DNA of 64,000 nt from Octopus vulgaris (Eukaryota), in contig OX597815.1 of the NCBI GenBank assembly GCA_951406725.2, forward strand, positions 85,064,001 to 85,128,000, read 5' to 3'. The first letter of the stretch is position 1. The number at the start of each line of letters is the position of its first letter. The translations under genes and the position numbers were made by a program. Shown here piece after piece: positions 3,731-59,785 of the stretch. The notes below the pieces were generated by a model. It was not told where the DNA came from. It did no database searches and worked only from the letters and a program-made list of their open reading frames with translations.

Positions 3731-4345
3731 CACCCCCTTTGCTTGCGAAGACATGTTGGGGCAAGCGAAATCGAAATCGAAATCGAATTGAACCAGCCAG
3801 GATCCCTGGTCTGGTGGTACATAAAAAGCACTATCCGACTCGTGGCCGATGCCAGCACCGCCTCGACTGGCTTCCGTGCCGGTGGCACATAAAATACACC
3901 AATCCAACCATGGCCGTTGCCAGCCTCGCCTGGCACCTGTGCAGGTGGCACGCAAAAAGCACCCACTACACTCACGGAGTGGTTGGCGTTAGGAAGGGCA
4001 TCCAGCTGTAGAAACATTGCCAGATAAGACTGGAGCCTGGTGCAGCCTTCTGGCTTCCCAGATCCCCGGTCGAACCGTCCAACCCATGCTAGCATGGAGA
4101 ACGGACGTTAAACGATGATGATGATGATGATGATGATGATATACATAAAAAGCACCATCCGTTCGTGGCCGTTTGCCAGCTCTGTCTGGCACCTGTGTGG
4201 GTGGCACGTAAAAAGCACCCACTACACTCACGAAGTGGTTGGCGTTAGGAAAGGCATTCAGCCGTAGAAACACTGCCAGATTTGACTGGGCCTGATGAAG
4301 CCTTCTGGCTTCACAGACCCCAGTAGAACCGTCCAACCCATGCTG
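3731..4345 (+). mobile_element. Two tandem RTE 3'-tail copies (3731-4140 with (GAT)n; 4144-4345 truncated)
   Basis: Same tail sequence as 1-207. Confidence 0.8.
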
Positions 4346-14699: not shown

Positions 14700-15345
14700 T
14701 CACTGAAGCTTCCATCTACTCTTGATTGATGAAGCACAAAAAGTGAGCACAGAAAGTGATTGCAGAAAGTGAGCCATGGTTCAGAATGAGAAGGAAATTT
14801 TTTTTTTCATTTTTTTTTTGCAATCTTAATATGCATAAGCAGTGGTTATGCAAGAGCCAGCTTCTGGAACATGTCGTCAAACAGGGGTGTTTCGAACACA
14901 GGTAACACTCTGCATCTGGTGGAGTTATGAGTTCATTACAGATGATCAATCCATCAATGCCAACTTGTGCTCCAAACAGCAGCTGCATTTTTTTTTTGCA
15001 ATCTTAATATGCATAAGCAGTGGTTATGCAAGAGCCAGCTTCTGGAACATGTCGTCAAACAGGGGTGTTTCGAACACAGGTAACACTCTGCATCTGGTGG
15101 AGTTATGAGTTCATTACAGATGATCAATCCATCAATGCCAACTTGTGCTCCAAACAGCAGCTGCAGATGATGCCATTGCAAAGCAAAATACCTGGTATTG
15201 GTTGACAGAAAGCAAATACTTCAGTAAGACAATGCAAGATCTCATACTGCTTGAACAACCTGGAGTAAACTCTAAGAACTAGAAGGAATCAAAATGATGC
15301 CACACCTAGCATATATCCTGCACCAAGCTCCCTCAGATTATTACT
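14700..15345 (+). pseudogene. Mariner transposase relic containing a perfect 178-bp tandem duplication (about 14810-15166)
   Basis: VTLCIWW..YEF...SINANL..QQL resembles the mariner catalytic region; identical ORF starts at 14842 and 15020. Confidence 0.6.
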
Positions 15346-21559: not shown

Positions 21560-21839
21560 TTGCTGGTGTCACATTAAAGAGCATCCATGCTGGTGCCATG
21601 TTTAAAGCTCCTTTGCTGGTGCCACATATGAAGCATCCATGCTGGTGCAATATATAAAACGTTGGTGCTGGTGCCATGTAAAAAGCACCCGGTGTACTCT
21701 GTATAGAGGTTGGCATTAGGAAGTACATCAACCATAGAAACCGTGCCAAGACTAACAATTGGAGCCTGGTGCAGCTCTCTGGCTTGCCAATTACTATCAA
21801 ACTGTCCAACGTATGCCACCATGGAAAATGGAATTTAAG

Positions 21840-21873
<34 letters not shown>

Positions 21874-28526: not shown

Positions 28527-28718
28527 TGCCAGCTCTGTCTGGCTCCTGTGCAGGTGGCACGTAAAAAGCACCCACTACACTCACGGAGTGGTTGGCATTA
28601 GGAAGGGCATCCAGCCGTAGAAACACTGCCAAATCTGACTGGGCCTGATGAAGCCTTCCGGCTTCACAGACCCCAGTTAAACCGTCCAACCCATGCTAGC
28701 ATGGAAAACGGACGCTAA

Positions 28719-28752
<34 letters not shown>

Positions 28753-44849: not shown

Positions 44850-46320
44850 TTCATTGTAGGTAAATCATAGGTTTCATGTCGGAACAATGTGTTGTCTTTG
44901 AGTTCTTGATGAAGGAGTGGTGCAGGCTGTCTGACATCTGCAGAAGGCTACGTGTTTTTTACAGAGATGACATCACAGATGACAAGAACAATTAGCACAG
45001 ATGGATGAAGCTTAAGAATGGAGAAAATGGCTTTGAAGACAAATTATACAATGAGAGGCTTTCAACTGTGAATACCAATGTGCATCACCAGCAAGTGGAA
45101 AATTAATTTGCGTGGATGTATGAGATTGCTACACAGCTGGAATGTGGTCATAATGCATTGCAGATGATGGAAGACTTTTGGGCATCAGAAAGTGAGTGCA
45201 AAATGGGTGTCTAGACAATTAACGCCCAATTTGAAAGAGGGCGGAAATCTGTTCAGATTTACGAAAAGCATTTGAAGTCAATGAAGACACATTTTTTACC
45301 CATCTGGAGACTGAGAGATAAAACATAGATAATTTTTATAATCTTTGAGCATTGGGCCTGATGGGGGCAAAGTGACTGAGTTCCTTTCAAGTGTTGGGCC
45401 TGATGGAGGCAAAGTGACTGAGTTCCTTTCGAGTGTTGGGCCTCACAGAGGCAAAGTGGCTGAGTTCCTTTCGAGCAGGCCTCATGGAAGCAAGGTAGCT
45501 GAGTTCCTTTCAAGCGTTGGACTTCATAGAGACAAAGTGGCCAAGCTCCTTTCGAGTGTTGGGCCTCATGGAGGCAATGACCAAGACCTTTGGCATTATG
45601 TTGTGCTTGAGAAGAAGACCCATCAAGCTGAGCAAAATCGCAGTCATAGAAGGTGTCAGTGTCACACAAATGGCACCTGTACTAGTGGCATGTAAAAGCA
45701 CCAATTACACTCTCGGAGTGGTTGGCGTTAGGAAGGGCATCCAGCCATAGAAAATCATGCCAAATGAGACTGGAGCTTGGCACAGCTTTCCAGCATGCCA
45801 GCCCAGTCAAACCATCCAACAAAAGCTTATTCCATGGAATGGCACCACACTTATTCACCAAGGCCTAAGAAGTTCAAGAGCCAGTGATAAGCACACAAGG
45901 TTATGATAACTGTGTTTTGGGATTACAAGGGTAATTCATTCATCTTGATTTTCTGGAACATGGTAACTCTGTGAACAATGAGTTGTACATTGAGGCACCT
46001 GAAAAGCTTAGAGAAGCCATTTAGAGGATGAGACAAAACAAAAATATGAAAATAATCGCTTCAACAACAAAATTCAACAATCAGTAACTTGGACTGGTCA
46101 GTGGCCACCCATTCACTATACAGCCCAGATATAATATTCTTAAAGTTCCACTCGTTTAATTCAATGAATGACTGGCTTCAAGGACAAATACTTGATAACA
46201 CAGATGAGGTGAAAATGGCAGGGAAGAAGTAGGTACAACAGTGCACACCTGAATTTTTAGAAAAAGGATTTGAGAGTTTGTTTTAACAATGGTGCAAATC
46301 CATCACTTGTGATGGAGTGG
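44850..46320 (+). pseudogene. Old mariner transposase relic interrupted by an RTE 3' UTR (about 45340-45820) with a 36-39-bp minisatellite
   Basis: KVSAKWVSRQLT, PRPKKFKS..KVMITVFWD, HSLYSPD. Confidence 0.75.
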
Positions 46321-48394: not shown

Positions 48395-48780
48395 CTGAAA
48401 TTTGGGGGAAGGGGCTAATCGGAATTTGGAGGAGGGGATAGTTGTAGTTAGTGGGAAGGGGCTAGTTGAAATTTGGAGGAAGCTGCTAGTTGAAATTTGA
48501 GGGAGGGGGCTACTTGAAATTTGGGGGAGGGGGATAGTCGAAATTTGGAGGAGGATGCTAGTTGAAATTTGGGGGAGGGAGATAGCTGAAATTTGGGGGA
48601 AGGGGCTAGCTGAAATTTGGGGGAGGAGGCTACTTGAAATTTGGGGGAGGGAGATAGTTGAAATTTGGGGGAGGGGGCCAACTGAAATTTGGGGAAGGAG
48701 GCTAGTTGAAATTTGAGGAAAGAGGCTAATTGAAATTTGGAGGAGGATGCTAGTTGAAATTTGGGGGAGGGGGCTAGTCA
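48395..48780. repeat. 24-bp G-rich minisatellite (about 16 units) inside a minus-strand SINE B tail
   Basis: Unit like TAGTTGAAATTTGGGGGAGGGGGC; preceded by TCCTTTCTACTATAAGGGCAAGACC and followed by AATAAGTACCAG. Confidence 0.9.
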
Positions 48781-49763
48781 ATATGAAATATCATATATGA
48801 AATAAGTACCAGTGTTCCAGTGGTACTCATTTCATATCCTATTAATTATAGTTCTTGTGTCACATTACTGCATCATTACATCTTTCAAAGCTAATAATAT
48901 CTAGCATCACTGCTCTCAGTGCTTTTATTCACAACAGTTTTATACTTTACCTCCAAGTCAGAAATTTATAGTGGAGGTGCAGGTTTGGCCATGCGATTAA
49001 GAAGCATGGTTTCTGACTATGTGGCATTTGGTTCAGTTCCACTGTGTGGTACTTTGGATAAGTGTTTTCTACTCTAGCCCCAGGCTGACCCAAGTCTTGT
49101 GAATGAATTTGTGAGTGGATTTGGGAAGCCCATCAATATATACATATAAATATATACAAGGTGGTATCAAAAAGTTCCCGGTGTAGAGCCTGAAAGATGT
49201 GGGATGAGGTGATGAGGACCTCAAAATGCTGGGCCTCACTGAGGAGATGATGCATAACTTCTGGCAATTTGCTGTGCTTGAGGAAATATATCAAGCTAAG
49301 TAAAAACTGTGGCCATTCATGCATAGAGGCAGGTCCTCTATGGCCCATGCCGGTGCCACATAGAAAACACTTGTGCTGACATCTGCTGACATCATGTAAG
49401 AAACACACATGCCGGCATCACATAAAAAGCACCTGTGCTGATGTCATGTGAAAGGCACCCAACACACTGTAAAATGCTTGGCATTAGGAAGGGCATCCAG
49501 CCATAGAAATCATGCCAAAACAGACAAGTAGAACCTAGGCAGCTCTCTAGCTGGCCAGTTCTTGTCAAACTGTCCAACCCATGCCAGCAAGGGAAACAGA
49601 TGTTAAATGATGATGATGACAATGTTTCTATGCGCTTACCAACCACATGGTTCCGGGTTCTGTCCCACTGTGTGGCATCTTGGGCAAGTGTCTTCTATTA
49701 TAGCCTCAGGCCGACCAAAGCCTTGTGATTGGATTTGGTAGATGGAAACTGAAAGAAGCCTAT

Positions 49764-49805
<42 letters not shown>

Positions 49806-49811
<6 letters not shown>

Positions 49812-50255
49812 AATGAGATAGGGGTTGTAAATTCAACCCTCCATGGGATAACATATATCCAACATACTGCTAGAGAGGTACCCAACAAAACTAATACATA
49901 AATGTTAAAAATTGCGATGCAATTAATTCATCTACTGTATTATGTGGGCAAGGGTAAAATTATTACCGTAAATTAATAATACAAAATGAGAAAATGGAGA
50001 AACATACCTAAATCAATCATCAACCATCAGATAATACCCAATCAATACTTTATCAAACCATTACACAACAGCAAAGATATTATACATAATATATTACAAA
50101 TATAACCAGACATAGAAATAATGTCTAGTTATATTTGTAATATATTATGTATAATATCTTTGCTGTTGTGTAATGGTTTAATAAAGTATTGATTGGGTAT
50201 TATCTGATGGTTGATGATTGATTTAGGTATGTTTCTCCATTTTCTCATTTTGTAT
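49806..50255. repeat. Fold-back insertion (arms 49979-50113 and 50121-50255) between TA tracts, probable PLE stub
   Basis: 135-bp inverted arms with a 7-nt loop and about 2 mismatches. Confidence 0.8.
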
Positions 50256-50270
50256 ATATATATATATATA

Positions 50271-53200
50271 TCTTTGAACTTTAATTCATCCGTATCTCTA
50301 TTTATTATTATTATTTATTAATTATTATTATTCTGATCCCCCTAGTCGCCACTCTGTTTACTATTTCAGCCTCGCCTCGTTTTGCATATTCTGTATAATT
50401 CACTAGTTATCGTTATAGATATTTTAAGATCTATCTCCCTTATAGAAATTGGCTGCCGATTCTTCGCGGGGTTTTTCTCTTCCCTTCTCTCCCCCTCTTG
50501 TTACATTGTCGTCTGTCTGGACTCCTCTCTTCCTACCACCCGCCATGGCTATGCATACTTAAGCTAGTAAACTGCCTCATTCTTGATTCCGAATTCCTTT
50601 TGCCAAGTCTGTCCGTAAACGAAGTGATCTCAAGATAAGAAATCTTTGAACTTTAATTCATCCGTATCTCTATTTATTATTATTATTTATTAATTATTAT
50701 TATTCTGATCCCCCTAGTCGCCACTCTGTTTACTATTTCAGCCTCGCCTCGTTTTGCATATTCTGTATAATTCACTAGTTATCGTTATAGATATTTTAAG
50801 ATCTATCTCCCTTATAGAAATTGGCTGCCGATTCTTCGCGGGGTTTTTCTCTTCCCTTCTCTCCCCCTCTTGTTACATTGTCGTCTGTCTGGACTCCTCT
50901 CTTCCTACCACCCGCCATGGCTATGCATACTTAAGCTAGTAAACTGCCTCATTCTTGATTCCGAATTCCTTTTGCCAAGTCTGTCCGTAAACGAAGTGAT
51001 CTCAAGATAAGAAATCTTTGAACTTTAATTCATCCGTATCTCTATTTATTATTATTATTTATTAATTATTATTATTCTGATCCCCCTAGTCGCCACTCTG
51101 TTTACTATTTCAGCCTCGCCTCGTTTTGCATATTCTGTATAATTCACTAGTTATCGTTATAGATATTTTAAGATCTATCTCCCTTATAGAAATTGGCTGC
51201 CGATTCTTCGCGGGGTTTTTCTCTTCCCTTCTCTCCCCCTCTTGTTACATTGTCGTCTGTCTGGACTCCTCTCTTCCTACCACCCGCCATGGCTATGCAT
51301 ACTTAAGCTAGTAAACTGCCTCATTCTTGATTCCGAATTCCTTTTGCCAAGTCTGTCCGTAAACGAAGTGATCTCAAGATAAGAAATCTTTGAACTTTAA
51401 TTCATCCGTATCTCTATTTATTATTATTATTTATTAATTATTATTATTCTGATCCCCCTAGTCGCCACTCTGTTTACTATTTCAGCCTCGCCTCGTTTTG
51501 CATATTCTGTATAATTCACTAGTTATCGTTATAGATATTTTAAGATCTATCTCCCTTATAGAAATTGGCTGCCGATTCTTCGCGGGGTTTTTCTCTTCCC
51601 TTCTCTCCCCCTCTTGTTACATTGTCGTCTGTCTGGACTCCTCTCTTCCTACCACCCGCCATGGCTATGCATACTTAAGCTAGTAAACTGCCTCATTCTT
51701 GATTCCGAATTCCTTTTGCCAAGTCTGTCCGTAAACGAAGTGATCTCAAGATAAGAAATCTTTGAACTTTAATTCATCCGTATCTCTATTTATTATTATT
51801 ATTTATTAATTATTATTATTCTGATCCCCCTAGTCGCCACTCTGTTTACTATTTCAGCCTCGCCTCGTTTTGCATATTCTGTATAATTCACTAGTTATCG
51901 TTATAGATATTTTAAGATCTATCTCCCTTATAGAAATTGGCTGCCGATTCTTCGCGGGGTTTTTCTCTTCCCTTCTCTCCCCCTCTTGTTACATTGTCGT
52001 CTGTCTGGACTCCTCTCTTCCTACCACCCGCCATGGCTATGCATACTTAAGCTAGTAAACTGCCTCATTCTTGATTCCGAATTCCTTTTGCCAAGTCTGT
52101 CCGTAAACGAAGTGATCTCAAGATAAGAAATCTTTGAACTTTAATTCATCCGTATCTCTATTTATTATTATTATTTATTAATTATTATTATTCTGATCCC
52201 CCTAGTCGCCACTCTGTTTACTATTTCAGCCTCGCCTCGTTTTGCATATTCTGTATAATTCACTAGTTATCGTTATAGATATTTTAAGATCTATCTCCCT
52301 TATAGAAATTGGCTGCCGATTCTTCGCGGGGTTTTTCTCTTCCCTTCTCTCCCCCTCTTGTTACATTGTCGTCTGTCTGGACTCCTCTCTTCCTACCACC
52401 CGCCATGGCTATGCATACTTAAGCTAGTAAACTGCCTCATTCTTGATTCCGAATTCCTTTTGCCAAGTCTGTCCGTAAACGAAGTGATCTCAAGATAAGA
52501 AATCTTTGATCTCAATTATTTTATAATCCCCTACTTTTTTAATCTTTGAACTTTAATTCTGATCCGTATCTCTCTATTTATTATTATTATTTATTAATTA
52601 TTATTATTATTCTGATCCCCCTAGTCGCCACTCTGTTTACTATTTCAGCCTCGCCTCGTTTTGCATATTCTGTATAATTCACTAGTTATCGTTATAGATA
52701 TTTTAAGATCTATCTCCCTTATAGAAATTGGCTGCCGATTCTTCGCGGGGTTTTTCTCTTCCCTTCTCTCCCCCTCTTGTTACATTGTCGTCTGTCTGGA
52801 CTCCTCTCTTCCTACCACCCGCCATGGCTATGCATACTTAAGCTAGTAAACTGCCTCATTCTTGATTCCGAATTCCTTTTGCCAAGTCTGTCCGTAAACG
52901 AAGTGATCTCAAGATAAGAAATCTTTGAACTTTAATTCATCCGTATCTCTATTTATTATTATTATTTATTAATTATTATTATTCTGATCCCCCTAGTCGC
53001 CACTCTGTTTACTATTTCAGCCTCGCCTCGTTTTGCATATTCTGTATAATTCACTAGTTATCGTTATAGATATTTTAAGATCTATCTCCCTTATAGAAAT
53101 TGGCTGCCGATTCTTCGCGGGGTTTTTCTCTTCCCTTCTCTCCCCCTCTTGTTACATTGTCGTCTGTCTGGACTCCTCTCTTCCTACCACCCGCCATGGC

Positions 53201-56200
53201 TATGCATACTTAAGCTAGTAAACTGCCTCATTCTTGATTCCGAATTCCTTTTGCCAAGTCTGTCCGTAAACGAAGTGATCTCAAGATAAGAAATCTTTGA
53301 ACTTTAATTCATCCGTATCTCTATTTATTATTATTATTTATTAATTATTATTATTCTGATCCCCCTAGTCGCCACTCTGTTTACTATTTCAGCCTCGCCT
53401 CGTTTTGCATATTCTGTATAATTCACTAGTTATCGTTATAGATATTTTAAGATCTATCTCCCTTATAGAAATTGGCTGCCGATTCTTCGCGGGGTTTTTC
53501 TCTTCCCTTCTCTCCCCCTCTTGTTACATTGTCGTCTGTCTGGACTCCTCTCTTCCTACCACCCGCCATGGCTATGCATACTTAAGCTAGTAAACTGCCT
53601 CATTCTTGATTCCGAATTCCTTTTGCCAAGTCTGTCCGTAAACGAAGTGATCTCAAGATAAGAAATCTTTGAACTTTAATTCATCCGTATCTCTATTTAT
53701 TATTTATTAATTATTATTATTCTGATCCCCCTAGTCGCCACTCTGTTTACTATTTCAGCCTCGCCTCGTTTTGCATATTCTGTATAATTCACTAGTTATC
53801 GTTATAGATATTTTAAGATCTATCTCCCTTATAGAAATTGGCTGCCGATTCTTCGCGGGGTTTTTCTCTTCCCTTCTCTCCCCCTCTTGTTACATTGTCG
53901 TCTGTCTGGACTCCTCTCTTCCTACCACCCGCCATGGCTATGCATACTTAAGCTAGTAAACTGCCTCATTCTTGATTCCGAATTCCTTTTGCCAAGTCTG
54001 TCCGTAAACGAAGTGATCTCAAGATAAGAAATCTTTGAACTTTAATTCATCCGTATCTCTATTTATTATTATTATTTATTAATTATTATTATTCTGATCC
54101 CCCTAGTCGCCACTCTGTTTACTATTTCAGCCTCGCCTCGTTTTGCATATTCTGTATAATTCACTAGTTATCGTTATAGATATTTTAAGATCTATCTCCC
54201 TTATAGAAATTGGCTGCCGATTCTTCGCGGGGTTTTTCTCTTCCCTTCTCTCCCCCTCTTGTTACATTGTCGTCTGTCTGGACTCCTCTCTTCCTACCAC
54301 CCGCCATGGCTATGCATACTTAAGCTAGTAAACTGCCTCATTCTTGATTCCGAATTCCTTTTGCCAAGTCTGTCCGTAAACGAAGTGATCTCAAGATAAG
54401 AAATCTTTGAACTTTAATTCATCCGTATCTCTATTTATTATTATTATTTATTAATTATTATTATTCTGATCCCCCTAGTCGCCACTCTGTTTACTATTTC
54501 AGCCTCGCCTCGTTTTGCATATTCTGTATAATTCACTAGTTATCGTTATAGATATTTTAAGATCTATCTCCCTTATAGAAATTGGCTGCCGATTCTTCGC
54601 GGGGTTTTTCTCTTCCTTCTCTCCCCCTCTTGTTACATTGTCGTCTGTCTGGACTCCTCTCTTCCTACCACCCGCCATGGCTATGCATACTTAAGCTAGT
54701 AAACTGCCTCATTCTTGATTCCGAATTCCTTTTGCCAAGTCTGTCCGTAAACGAAGTGATCTCAAGATAAGAAATCTTTGAACTTTAATTCATCCGTATC
54801 TCTATTTATTATTATTATTTATTAATTATTATTATTCTGATCCCCCTAGTCGCCACTCTGTTTACTATTTCAGCCTCGCCTCGTTTTGCATATTCTGTAT
54901 AATTCACTAGTTATCGTTATAGATATTTTAAGATCTATCTCCCTTATAGAAATTGGCTGCCGATTCTTCGCGGGGTTTTTCTCTTCCCTTCTCTCCCCCT
55001 CTTGTTACATTGTCGTCTGTCTGGACTCCTCTCTTCCTACCACCCGCCATGGCTATGCATACTTAAGCTAGTAAACTGCCTCATTCTTGATTCCGAATTC
55101 CTTTTGCCAAGTCTGTCCGTAAACGAAGTGATCTCAAGATAAGAAATCTTTGAACTTTAATTCATCCGTATCTCTATTTATTATTATTATTTATTAATTA
55201 TTATTATTCTGATCCCCCTAGTCGCCACTCTGTTTACTATTTCAGCCTCGCCTCGTTTTGCATATTCTGTATAATTCACTAGTTATCGTTATAGATATTT
55301 TAAGATCTATCTCCCTTATAGAAATTGGCTGCCGATTCTTCGCGGGGTTTTTCTCTTCCCTTCTCTCCCCCTCTTGTTACATTGTCGTCTGTCTGGACTC
55401 CTCTCTTCCTACCACCCGCCATGGCTATGCATACTTAAGCTAGTAAACTGCCTCATTCTTGATTCCGAATTCCTTTTGCCAAGTCTGTCCGTAAACGAAG
55501 TGATCTCAAGATAAGAAATCTTTGAACTTTAATTCATCCGTATCTCTATTTATTATTATTATTTATTAATTATTATTATTCTGATCCCCCTAGTCGCCAC
55601 TCTGTTTACTATTTCAGCCTCGCCTCGTTTTGCATATTCTGTATAATTCACTAGTTATCGTTATAGATATTTTAAGATCTATCTCCCTTATAGAAATTGG
55701 CTGCCGATTCTTCGCGGGGTTTTTCTCTTCCCTTCTCTCCCCCTCTTGTTACATTGTCGTCTGTCTGGACTCCTCTCTTCCTACCACCCGCCATGGCTAT
55801 GCATACTTAAGCTAGTAAACTGCCTCATTCTTGATTCCGAATTCCTTTTGCCAAGTCTGTCCGTAAACGAAGTGATCTCAAGATAAGAAATCTTTGAACT
55901 TTAATTCATCCGTATCTCTATTTATTATTATTATTTATTAATTATTATTATTCTGATCCCCCTAGTCGCCACTCTGTTTACTATTTCAGCCTCGCCTCGT
56001 TTTGCATATTCTGTATAATTCACTAGTTATCGTTATAGATATTTTAAGATCTATCTCCCTTATAGAAATTGGCTGCCGATTCTTCGCGGGGTTTTTCTCT
56101 TCCCTTCTCTCCCCCTCTTGTTACATTGTCGTCTGTCTGGACTCCTCTCTTCCTACCACCCGCCATGGCTATGCATACTTAAGCTAGTAAACTGCCTCAT

Positions 56201-57205
56201 TCTTGATTCCGAATTCCTTTTGCCAAGTCTGTCCGTAAACGAAGTGATCTCAAGATAAGAAATCTTTGAACTTTAATTCATCCGTATCTCTATTTATTAT
56301 TATTATTTATTAATTATTATTATTCTGATCCCCCTAGTCGCCACTCTGTTTACTATTTCAGCCTCGCCTCGTTTTGCATATTCTGTATAATTCACTAGTT
56401 ATCGTTATAGATATTTTAAGATCTATCTCCCTTATAGAAATTGGCTGCCGATTCTTCGCGGGGTTTTTCTCTTCCCTTCTCTCCCCCTCTTGTTACATTG
56501 TCGTCTGTCTGGACTCCTCTCTTCCTACCACCCGCCATGGCTATGCATACTTAAGCTAGTAAACTGCCTCATTCTTGATTCCGAATTCCTTTTGCCAAGT
56601 CTGTCCGTAAACGAAGTGATCTCAAGATAAGAAATCTTTGAACTTTAATTCATCCGTATCTCTATTTATTATTATTATTTATTAATTATTATTATTCTGA
56701 TCCCCCTAGTCGCCACTCTGTTTACTATTTCAGCCTCGCCTCGTTTTGCATATTCTGTATAATTCACTAGTTATCGTTATAGATATTTTAAGATCTATCT
56801 CCCTTATAGAAATTGGCTGCCGATTCTTCGCGGGGTTTTTCTCTTCCCTTCTCTCCCCCTCTTGTTACATTGTCGTCTGTCTGGACTCCTCTCTTCCTAC
56901 CACCCGCCATGGCTATGCATACTTAAGCTAGTAAACTGCCTCATTCTTGATTCCGAATTCCTTTTGCCAAGTCTGTCCGTAAACGAAGTGATCTCAAGAT
57001 AAGAAATCTTTGAACTTTAATTCATCCGTATCTCTATTTATTATTATTATTTATTAATTATTATTATTCTGATCCCCCTAGTCGCCACTCTGTTTACTAT
57101 TTCAGCCTCGCCTCGTTTTGCATATTCTGTATAATTCACTAGTTATCGTTATAGATATTTTAAGATCTATCTCCCTTATAGAAATTGGCTGCCGATTCTT
57201 CGCGG
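50271..57205. repeat. Tandem array of about 18.5 near-identical 372-bp units
   Basis: Identical 61-aa pseudo-ORF spaced by 372 bp; variant spacings of 419, 366 and 371. Confidence 0.98.
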
Positions 57206-57283
57206 CGCGCCCGCCCTACCCACCCCCACCACCAATACCGGATATCTCTATTTTGCTCCAACTATACCGGATGTCGTTTTCTC

Positions 57284-58128
57284 CCACCACCATTATAGGT
57301 GTCTACTCTTTGAACCCCCTCTTCAATACGCTATTTCACCATGCATTACCCCTCTCTCGATATCCTACGTTCTACTTGCCTAGAACCTGTCCTCTGGACC
57401 ACCCCTCCCACTGGTTCTCACCCCTCCCACTGGTGCTCACCCCTCCCACTGGTGCTCCCCTATATTTCTGCATCCCCCCACCACCATTATAGGTGTCTAC
57501 TCTTTGAACCCCCTCTTCAATACGCTATTTCACCATGCATTACCCCTCTCTCGATATCCTACGTTCTACTTGCCTAGAACCTGTCCTCTGAACCACCCCT
57601 CCCACTGGTGCTCCCCTATATTTCTGCACCCCCCACCACCATTATAGGTGTCTACTCTTTTGAACCCCCTCTTCAATACGCTATTCACCATGCATTACCC
57701 CTCTCTCGATATCCTACGTTCTACTTGCCTAGAACCTGTCCTCTGAACCACCCCTCCCACTGGTGCCCACCCCTCCCACTGGTGCTCCCCTATATTTCTG
57801 CACCCCCCCACCACCACCATAATAGGTGTCTACTCTTTGAACCCCCCTCTTCAATACGCTATTTCACCATGCATTACCCCTCTCTCGATATCCTACGTTC
57901 TACTTGCCTAGAACCTGTCCCCTGAACCACCCCTCCCACTGGTGCTCCCCTATATTTCTGCACCCCCCACCACCATTATAGGTGTCTACTCTTTGAACCC
58001 CCCTCTTCAATACGCTATTTCACCATGCATTACCCCTCTCTCGATATCCTACATTCTACTTGACTAGTACCTGTCCTCTGAACCACCCCTCCCACTGGTG
58101 CTCCCCTATATTTCTGCACCCCCCCCCC
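57284..58128. repeat. Tandem array of five 155-194-bp units with a nested 19-bp VNTR
   Basis: ATAGGTGTCTACTC at about 57295, 57489, 57644, 57822 and 57978; CCCCTCCCACTGGTGCTC occurs 1-3 times per unit. Confidence 0.95.
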
Positions 58129-58379
58129 ATAAAAAGCACCATCCGAACGTGGCCGATGCCAGACCCCTCTGGCACCTGTGCAGGTGGCACGTAAAAAACA
58201 CCCACTACACTCGCGGAGTGGTTGGCGTTAGGAAGGGCATCCAGCTGTAGAAACACTGCCAGACTAGACTGGAGCCTGGGGCAGTCCCGAGCTCCCCAGA
58301 CCCCGGTCGAAACCGTCCAACCCGTGCTAGCGCGGAAAACGGACGTTAAACGATGATGATGATGATGATGATGATGATG
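58129..58379 (+). mobile_element. Young RTE 3' tail with (GAT)n
   Basis: Tail consensus with CpGs intact, followed by a TA tract. Confidence 0.85.
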
Positions 58380-58473
58380 TATATATATATATATATGTAT
58401 GTGTGTGTAGTGTATTGTTCTGTGATGGTGAGATCAACAAAAAAAGTACTCCATCTGGAGAGAGATAAATATC

Positions 58474-58590
58474 ATTTAATAAACACAATATATGTTTTAT
58501 GTGTTACTATTAGTTTCATGCAATAAAACTAATAGTAGCACATAAAACATATATTGTGGTTATTAAATAATATTTCTCATTTTGTATTAT
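58474..58590. repeat. Short fold-back (about 43-bp arms) plus a tail abutting a TA tract
   Basis: CACAATATATGTTTTATGTG.TACTATTAGTTT / AAACTAATAGTA.CACATAAAACATATATTGTG. Confidence 0.7.
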
Positions 58591-59173
58591 ATATATATAT
58601 ATATATACATATTTATATATGAGAAAAAGAAGGCAGTCAGAATTTCATCTGAATCCTGACTTCCTGACTTATATATATGTGTGTGTATGTTGGTTGACCT
58701 GATGCTATAGTAGAAGACACTATAGGTGCTGTGCAGTGGGTCTGAACCCAGAACCATGTGTACAAGAAGCAAACGTCTTACCACACAGCCATGCCTGCAC
58801 CTTCCTAAAAATTAAAAGAAAAAATAAATAAATAACAAAGAGCATTTATTTTGTCAATGCACATTCTTCTACTCTGTAATATGTTTAAACATATTTATGT
58901 GAGGTTAGTTGTGTCAAGAACAGAATTAAGTCAGGAATGTTTTCTAAGGAGTGTTTCTTAAGAAAGCCATTAAAATGAAATAAAATATAGTGTAATTGAA
59001 ACACAGTAGCTCTCAGCCCACGATAGTATCACTAACAACACAGTGTCACAATGTATCACAGACATTCCACAGTGTCACTAACACCAAATTGCACTTATTT
59101 AGTGCTGTACAACTGAACCCACTAGAGTGCTATGAAGCCAGTGCAACACCTGTATTATGTTTCATTTGCTTTA

Positions 59174-59785
59174 CAAGGGAGTGCTGAAAAGTTCCTGGCT
59201 TTGGGTAAAAGAATATACAAGAGGAACAGTTAATTATGATTTAATTAATATATTGGACTGGTGGTACGTAAAAAGCACTATGCGAATCGTGGCCGATGCC
59301 AGCGCCCCCTCGACTGGCTTCCGTGCTGGTGGCACGTAAAAAGTACCATCCGAATCGTGGCCGATGCCAGTGCCGCCTCGACTGGCTTCCGTGCCGGTGG
59401 CGCGTAAAATGCACCAATCCGACCGTGGCCGTTGCCAGCCTCGCCTGGCACCTGTGCAGGTGGCACGTAAAAAGCACCCACTACACTCACGGAGTGGTTG
59501 GCGTTAGGAAGGGCATCCAGCTGTAGAAACATTGCCAGATAAGACTGGAGCCTGGTGAAGCCTTCTGGCTTCCCAGATCCCCGGTCGAACCGTCCAACCT
59601 ATGCTAGCATGGAAAATGGACGTTAAACGATGATGATGATGATGATGATTTCCCCCTCAGATTCACACACTTAATGCAACAGTCCTCCAGTTTTGCTAAG
59701 CCCTGTAAAAGAACGCAGAAGGTTGGTCCTCCAACCAGGTCTTTTGTGATACCCTTAAAGCCAGGAACTTTTGAGCACCCCTTCA
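59174..59785. mobile_element. Mariner-derived MITE interrupted by an RTE tail (about 59257-59649)
   Basis: TA TSD; TIRs AAGGGAGTGCTGAAAAGTTCCTGGCTTT / AAAGCCAGGAACTTTTGAGCACCCCTT. Confidence 0.85.

Follow-up and report, generated by a model that had tools for sequence, protein, structure and literature searches.

We analyzed a window of 64,000 nucleotides from the genome of Octopus vulgaris (assembly GCA_951406725.2, contig OX597815.1, positions 85,064,001 to 85,128,000 of the forward strand), which contains an 8.1-kb repetitive element composed of two tandem arrays and the 3' end of a long interspersed nuclear element (LINE) of the RTE type. Coordinates given without a locus name are those of this window, and all parts of the element lie on the plus strand. 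From 5' to 3', a TA tract is followed by ~18.5 copies of a 372-bp monomer (the type A array, 50271 to 57205), a C-rich linker (57204 to 57286), five units of 155 to 194 bp (here called the 155-bp array, 57287 to 58128), a tail of ~223 nt (58129 to 58351), a (GAT)9 microsatellite detected by Tandem Repeats Finder (TRF) (58352 to 58378), and a second TA tract. A sequence-only reading of the window had claimed this order of parts, and both the TRF coordinates and the unit starts bore it out. The element is bracketed by a 19-bp target site duplication (TSD), TG(TA)8T, whose 5' copy (50251 to 50269) lies inside a TA microsatellite and whose 3' copy is found at 58378 to 58396.

Anatomy and composition of the element

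The 372-bp array is truncated at its 5' end. Fourteen of its 18 full units are identical, the remaining 4 vary by indels only, and not a single substitution was found across 16 aligned units. The array is interrupted by 40 bp of scrambled monomer-like pieces (52502 to 52541), after which comes a 379-bp variant unit; interruptions directly after the same monomer position (phase ~5) were also seen twice in another copy, C4a. The units of the 155-bp array start at 57287, 57481, 57636, 57814 and 57970, with lengths of 194, 155, 178, 156 and ~160 bp, respectively. With 78 amino acids (aa) as the longest open reading frame (ORF) starting with ATG, the element has no coding capacity.

Both arrays had been described as pyrimidine rich on the plus strand, and indeed the pyrimidine fraction is 0.65 in the 372-bp array and 0.71 in the 155-bp array, versus 0.48 to 0.49 in the flanks. 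The accompanying claim that all parts are CpG rich was correct for the 372-bp array, the linker and the tail, with observed/expected (o/e) ratios of 1.06, 1.37 and 0.85, respectively, compared to 0.20 to 0.21 in the flanks, but it failed for the 155-bp array, where the ratio is only 0.38. Moreover, CpG richness is not peculiar to the composite, since an ordinary RTE tail copy at 59258 to 59650 reaches 0.93.

The element is a deleted derivative of an RTE LINE

The first ~252 to 256 nt past the monomer/linker junction, corresponding to the linker and one 155-bp unit, are 88 to 90% identical to the untranslated region (UTR) at the 5' end in broken full-length RTE parents (L217, L218 and L220). 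The tail matches the 3' end of the 3' UTR at 93 to 95% in parent copies and at 87 to 89% in intact RTEs, and a (GAT)n repeat is present in all of them. In two degraded full-length RTEs, monomer-like DNA, linker, 5' UTR, an ORF encoding endonuclease (EN) and reverse transcriptase (RT), the same tail and (GAT)n occur in this order.

A search with the RTE protein gave 7,006 candidates, of which the best 150 were scored. Young intact RTEs were among them, and 20 were chosen for their long open frames (1,051 to 1,143 aa). The linker was present in 17 of these long-ORF RTEs and the tail, at 87 to 89% identity, in 19. Sixteen carried between 0.3 and 40.7 monomers of 340 to 360 bp upstream of the linker, joined to it at the same motif. 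Domain scans of two of them detected Exo_endo_phos and RVT_1, plus a sub-threshold PHD; a protein atlas returned nothing for the intact ORF. The RTE clade is described as having a single ORF with apurinic/apyrimidinic (AP) endonuclease and RT, and simple repeats at the 3' end (PMC2887409; here and below, published work is represented by the parts of the papers available to us). Fittingly, the partner LINE has a single EN-RT ORF and 3' simple repeats.

The linker (GGYGCRCCCGCCC...CCACCAATACCG) is thus the conserved start of the RTE 5' UTR core and is common to autonomous and parent RTEs. From the matches to parents and intact RTEs, it follows that the 155-bp array is the amplified remainder of the retained 5' UTR and that the 372-bp array occupies the place of the LINE's own 5' monomers. 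Since linker and 155-bp unit represent the 5' UTR of an RTE and the tail represents its 3' end, the element is an internally deleted, non-autonomous RTE, with the deletion breakpoint within a C run directly before the tail (58129). We consider it very probable that it is a real and very young derivative of this kind. From the shared tail, we infer that it would be mobilized in trans by an RTE protein.

The UTR behind the linker also contains more variable repeats, of 34, 38, 86 and 149 bp, in the intact RTEs (L197 to L216), indicating that local duplication is frequent across the whole RTE 5' UTR.

One core is found behind many monomer types

The genome searched comprises 2.8 Gb in 227 contigs, ~30 of them of chromosome size. 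A search with one 372-bp unit gave 246 candidates, of which the best 38 were scored; 36 of the 37 loci other than the window copy carried the array, the linker, the 155-bp array and the tail, and 1 ended in low-complexity DNA. The exact monomer/linker junction had 81 matches in the genome, compared to 0 for a reversed control, so that the junction pattern is beyond chance. All 81 junction loci were examined, and 79 run through the 155-bp array into the tail, the exceptions being L073 and L077. The copy number of the 155-bp array ranges from 1 to 8 in type A (5 copies in 46 of 90), and the unit is single copy in sister subfamilies and parents. Among 88 type A tails, 46 were identical to that of the window and none had more than 3 substitutions, which argues that the type A family is very young. 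The earlier suggestion of one young insertion that may have been mobilized through an RTE tail, whose parts should co-occur elsewhere and end in RTE tails, was supported by tails 0 to 3 substitutions apart and by the 79 complete junction loci.

We also searched for a tail 45-mer (390 exact matches) and a linker 23-mer (555 exact matches) and took loci from the first 100 matches listed of each. Of 20 tail matches on one contig (C1), 14 had monomers of other kinds, followed by the linker, one ~165-bp unit and the tail; 2 were type A, 1 was truncated in the 155-bp array, and 3 were the RTE 3' end within another LINE. These last three (L130, L136 and L137) represent three copies of that LINE and carry the same RTE 3' fragment at one common position, indicating that the fragment spread as a passenger or by duplication. 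Among 20 linker matches that lacked the tail 45-mer, 17 had core and tail, 2 proved to be degraded full-length RTE LINEs, and the remaining one was cut off.

The core has one identical attachment point for monomers of ~372, 357, 334, 256, 255, 243 and 237 bp. Related motifs, TTCG..TATTCGC or TATTCCC, terminate most types, and several types are mosaics of one another; types B237 and E300 have no BLAST similarity to the others. The core itself is just 2 to 3% diverged while bearing at least 7 monomer types. A core tree of 43 rows, drawn from 9 of 94 type A loci, 28 non-autonomous loci of other types and 6 of 15 parents, placed the 37 non-autonomous cores opposite the 6 parents across a branch with 100/99 support. 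A372, B237 and F334 each formed a single group, and C357 was basal and scattered; the bootstrap values of the tree are not fully settled. The simplest reading of the tree and of the shared junction is a single deletion event followed by repeated replacement of the monomers.

Three loci on contig C1 (L144, L156 and L164) are chimeras in which D-type monomers and the usual core follow, in this order, on an upstream array or a linker segment of autonomous type; they are possible intermediates of monomer swapping. L156 also includes a 371-bp array. At L088 (G000:C4:155394710-155401210), a type A and a type B member stand head to head within 6.5 kb. Contigs of a run with a second organism label (X16) cover the 372-bp unit, the linker and the 155-bp array, which raises the possibility that a close relative has the type A element too. 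We rejected a large-satellite reading, since all examined arrays but one were tied to the linker; a long terminal repeat (LTR) reading was rejected as well.

Insertions have random 5' ends and prefer TA-rich targets

The 3' end of type A loci is fixed, while the 5' end can lie at any monomer phase. The phases of 76 loci were uniform (Kolmogorov-Smirnov [KS] P = 0.12; Rayleigh P = 0.29; best 20-bp window P = 0.45), and a common phase of transcription start was therefore rejected. This test excluded three censored or gapped loci and copies ending in the last partial unit; five phases were corrected by hand, and L047, L049 and L050 were dropped from the phase table.

For the TSD test, 84 loci were kept and 10 with censored, gapped or tailless ends were excluded. 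A TSD of at least 12 bp was found at 22 loci, compared to 13.1 in shuffled pairs (maximum, 20), and a non-simple TSD was found at 9 loci, compared to 1.6 (maximum, 5). TA tracts adjoin the 5' end at 54 and the 3' end at 36 of the 84 loci, against a background of 7.6%. Taken together with the 19-bp duplication, this genome-wide bias indicates that the TA tracts bracketing the window element are target DNA. Cleavage or priming by RTEs has been proposed to depend on the microsatellite of the tail (PMC6007223).

Several copies have a 5' (TA)n but no 3' TA. Deletion of target DNA and addition of TA during second-strand priming are candidate causes of this asymmetry. Inversions of monomer sequence at the 5' side, resembling twin priming, were seen at L058 (2767 to 2876), at the L039 5' junction and at L165 (1041 to 3974, oriented).

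Arrays probably regrow from single monomers

Ten or more units were present in 7 of 81 type A loci. The extended arrays contained ~29, at least 33 and at least 34 units, the latter two being open-ended, and an autonomous copy reached 40. Sub-lineage markers are fixed throughout the arrays, including the terminal partial unit, and at 4 of 21 multi-unit loci (L035, L052, L072 and M14) a locus-private substitution is found in every unit. These array-wide variants suggest a bottleneck of one monomer, after which arrays expand again more rapidly than point mutations diversify them. A fifth private variant that had seemed fixed (L107) proved polymorphic in distal units after extension of the array. 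Variants are arranged in neighbor blocks and higher-order repeats, such as a 6-unit repeat in M28, and in C4a (L232 plus L081) two odd units recur as a pair at a distance of 16 units. Stepwise duplication at the DNA level is favored by these three patterns. Moreover, the arrays of L051, L054 and M28 are mosaics of sub-lineages.

We propose the following mechanism, to which we assign a rough probability of 0.6 as a whole, i.e., for an RTE derivative mobilized in trans, monomers acting as promoters and array regrowth at the DNA level jointly. A source copy with a long array would be transcribed from one of its monomers. The RTE protein would bind the 3' tail, nick AT-rich DNA and prime reverse transcription at the GAT repeats. 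Copying would mostly halt inside the array, leaving daughters with 0.1 to about 40 monomers at a random phase, and a daughter with at least one monomer could still be transcribed. Its array would then re-expand by unequal exchange or slippage, fixing the mutations of one monomer array-wide. New monomers may be acquired at the conserved ...TTCGC|GG boundary, through template switching or recombination.

Regrowth by the RT itself is unlikely in our view, although several observations keep it alive. The same element would be involved, but the RTE RT would reach the 5' end of the RNA, re-anneal to a monomer and copy it repeatedly, in the manner of telomerase, until integration stopped it at random, yielding arrays of up to 14 kb. 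Through the same re-annealing at the boundary of monomer and linker, parasites could also acquire new promoters. In favor of such reiteration are the substitution-free window array, together with about 1 substitution in 34 units of the C24 array, and three odd units of C4a that re-enter at phase ~201, which is the monomer/linker boundary (two of the three being the duplicated pair). Long arrays also sit on the youngest tails; the correlation of array length with tail age is weakly negative (rho = -0.19, P = 0.07), and longer arrays are not older. In addition, no unique 5' leader was seen at any locus whose end was reached, and both the private substitutions fixed in all units and the markers reaching the terminal partial unit would be expected. 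However, reiteration does not account well for neighbor blocks, higher-order repeats and sub-lineage mosaics, nor for the distal polymorphism of L107, and fixed private variants could come from unsampled long-array parents.

The monomers resemble promoter units

By analogy with mouse LINE-1 (L1), the 372-bp monomers are likely to be promoters. Besides their tandem arrangement and their position in intact RTE LINEs, this rests on CpG content and on a shared motif. CpG o/e is 1.05 for the type A monomer and 0.72 to 1.41 across monomer types, in a CpG-depleted genome. Seven of 10 monomer types contain the YY1-like motif CGCCAT, compared to 0.9 expected, and just 3 of 10 the full version, GCCATNTT. 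In an unbiased scan of 6-mers, CGCCAT scored z = 6.5 against a shuffle maximum of 6.2, and the other 6-mer above this maximum belonged to the junction motif. CGCCAT is the core of the YY1 site in mammalian L1 promoters (PMC5381506, PMC6454616). Contigs from four independent sequencing runs cover the unit, the linker, the 155-bp array and the tail, at a contig level that is blind to transcript starts, strand and level. We infer rather than observe a promoter role, because the monomer types are partly homologous and start clustering of the mouse kind is absent.

It is improbable that the monomers are merely neutral tandem DNA expanding at the 5' UTR, with transcription arising by read-through or from the linker core. 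The lack of clustering of 5' ends agrees with this notion, as does the transcript of the published octopus element RTE-2_OV, whose 5' UTR of only ~600 nt (PMC9115989) is near the linker-to-ATG distance in intact copies; short-read transcript assembly, however, would collapse arrays. Furthermore, a monomer array is kept at the same boundary in every lineage examined although its sequence has been replaced, and the monomers are CpG rich and share CGCCAT.

The sequence-only reading had offered two origins that we regard as largely refuted and very improbable: a template switch of the RTE tail onto an unrelated circular RNA or DNA copied by rolling circle, and an SVA-like fusion of foreign variable-number tandem repeats (VNTRs). 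Rolling-circle copying would indeed lead to very homogeneous arrays with random 5' phases, and the lack of BLAST similarity of B237 and E300 to other types agrees with these origins. Nevertheless, linker and 155-bp unit are RTE 5' UTR, intact autonomous RTE LINEs carry arrays at the same junction, and this junction is identical in 81 type A copies. The hammerhead core CTGANGA...GAAA was not found in 10 monomer types, and a Rfam search of 49500 to 59700 (E ≤ 5) gave no ribozyme family, only 13 weak hits of microRNA type in flanking hairpins and TA tracts, none of them in the element. Variants occur in neighbor blocks rather than as fixed-circle singletons, and among the best 38 of the 246 candidates, none was a source of the unit standing alone. 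A tRNA-derived short interspersed nuclear element (SINE) transcribed by RNA polymerase III was rejected on the basis of 0 ARAGORN genes and the lack of any Rfam match in the element.

That the long identical arrays are assembly artefacts, produced by over-expansion or polishing, is barely credible: the data come from a single assembly, arrays of >13 kb are near read lengths and the C4a pair 16 units apart could be a tiling error, but loci differ in fixed variants and unit lengths (333 to 391 bp) that cross-locus polishing would erase, the unit is present in contigs of independent runs, and an artefact would alter array lengths, not anatomy.

Several points weigh against the proposed mechanism of trans-mobilization, monomer promoters and DNA-level regrowth. 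The RTE label of the partner LINE is based on its architecture and a C-terminal motif. No intact ORF was present among the 15 closest parent copies, the longest being 888 aa, and the intact RTEs, only 87 to 89% identical in the tail, are no more than candidates for the actual driver. No TSD of at least 6 bp was found in 41 of 84 copies. CGCCAT was first spotted by eye, and the 10 monomer types share modules and are not independent. Mouse L1 copies have 5' ends that cluster at the start site (PMC6454616); those of 76 type A loci do not, and those of 16 autonomous loci are scattered. To explain random 5' ends, one must suppose in addition that source arrays are long enough for copying to stop, in most cases, before the end of the RNA. 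A substitution-free window array and a length that does not rise with age also fit arrays that were long at birth. Finally, array lengths above ~10 kb come from one assembly.

Neighboring features of the window

Directly upstream of the element lies a fold-back of a dispersed repeat (49810 to 50255) with arms at 49979 to 50113 and 50121 to 50255 that are 99% complementary. We take it to be Penelope-like, from the hammerhead core in a longer copy of the repeat (L155). Similar sequence was present in 6 fetched loci and adjoins just 1 other type A copy (L087), and we rejected it as part of the element. The abutment on a fold-back of the Penelope-like element (PLE) type noted earlier is thus real, but the fold-back is an independent neighbor; the adjacency is expected since both repeats target TA. 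A second hairpin with 56-bp arms (58464 to 58578) belongs to a dispersed repeat and shares its terminal TTCTCATTTTGTA motif with the left fold-back.

Ordinary RTE 3' ends are found at 3 to 228, 3820 to 4344, 21665 to 21868, 28527 to 28748, 45671 to 45820, 49429 to 49619 and 59258 to 59649. They are 74 to 89% identical to the tail of the composite, and some carry 68-bp repeats of the LINE 3' UTR. The window also contains a G-rich 24-bp minisatellite of 16 copies (48396 to 48778), a perfect 178-bp tandem duplication (14808 to 15165) and a 42-bp repeat of 5.5 copies (45352 to 45581).

Significance and comparison with known systems

LINEs lose their 5' promoter through truncation, and rodent L1 compensates with arrays of monomers. 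The layout recurs here in a LINE group unrelated to L1 and in its non-coding parasite, with arrays that are much longer. The very young copies, which number in the hundreds, bear at least 7 types of monomer while their core is only 2 to 3% diverged; this gives statistical power to separate DNA-level from RT-level regrowth and suits them to the study of promoter turnover. If RT reiteration were true, it would amount to a self-renewing LINE promoter and to a direct model for the upkeep of rodent L1 arrays. Published models of the brain-expressed octopus RTE omit the array region, and repeat annotations would score the arrays as satellites.

The combination was not found in the literature searched, which did not extend to Repbase and most subscription papers, and the design was found described only for rodent L1. 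Like metazoan retrozymes, the family forms dispersed tandem arrays of non-coding monomers in the 200- to 400-bp range (PMC7761336). Unlike retrozymes, it has no hammerhead core, and its arrays are tied to an RTE UTR and tail. SVA is a fusion of foreign parts, whereas the parts of the present element are, or occupy the place of, the LINE's own UTR. It shares with SVA that it is non-autonomous, contains VNTRs and is probably trans-mobilized by a LINE (PMC3287187).

Bipartite non-autonomous RTE derivatives are common (PMC7245038). As in these, a part of the 5' UTR has been joined to the RTE 3' end through internal deletion, the tail is a microsatellite and mobilization would occur in trans; the element has no coding capacity and its dispersed copies show an excess of TSDs. 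The published derivatives are short, with heads derived from tRNA, 5S, 7SL or snoRNA or rich in GC (PMC7245038). In contrast, the octopus element has no tRNA, and its head is a kilobase-scale array that is also found on an autonomous LINE and has repeatedly been replaced. A similar LINE already described is RTE-2_OV of O. vulgaris (PMC9115989), compared here with intact copies by description only: it has a single ORF of 1,109 aa (1,051 to 1,143 aa here) with EN and RT, a Zn-finger-like domain (here a weak PHD), UTRs of ~600 nt and a microsatellite where the ORF ends. No tandem array is mentioned in its main text, nor are monomer arrays mentioned in the available text of a further octopus paper (PMC13282606).

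Mouse and rat L1 offer a close parallel (PMC5381506, PMC6454616, PMC9022269). Both systems combine CpG-rich tandem monomers with a YY1-like motif and a conserved tether, which here is the linker; in both, the number of monomers varies and new 5' units have been recruited repeatedly. In the octopus, tandem monomers lie 5' of the tether in autonomous elements as well, in 16 of the 20 long-ORF copies. The octopus LINE has a single EN-RT ORF of RTE type instead of ORF1 and ORF2 and thus works like rodent L1 without being a member; its arrays are also carried by a non-coding parasite, and their promoter role is assigned by analogy. Arrays are longer as well, with at least 10 units (up to at least 34) in 7 of 81 type A loci, compared to >10 in 7 of 5,765 mouse L1 loci (PMC9022269). 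How rodent L1 maintains its monomer arrays has been called unclear (PMC6454616), and the octopus family repeats the same design on an RTE LINE.

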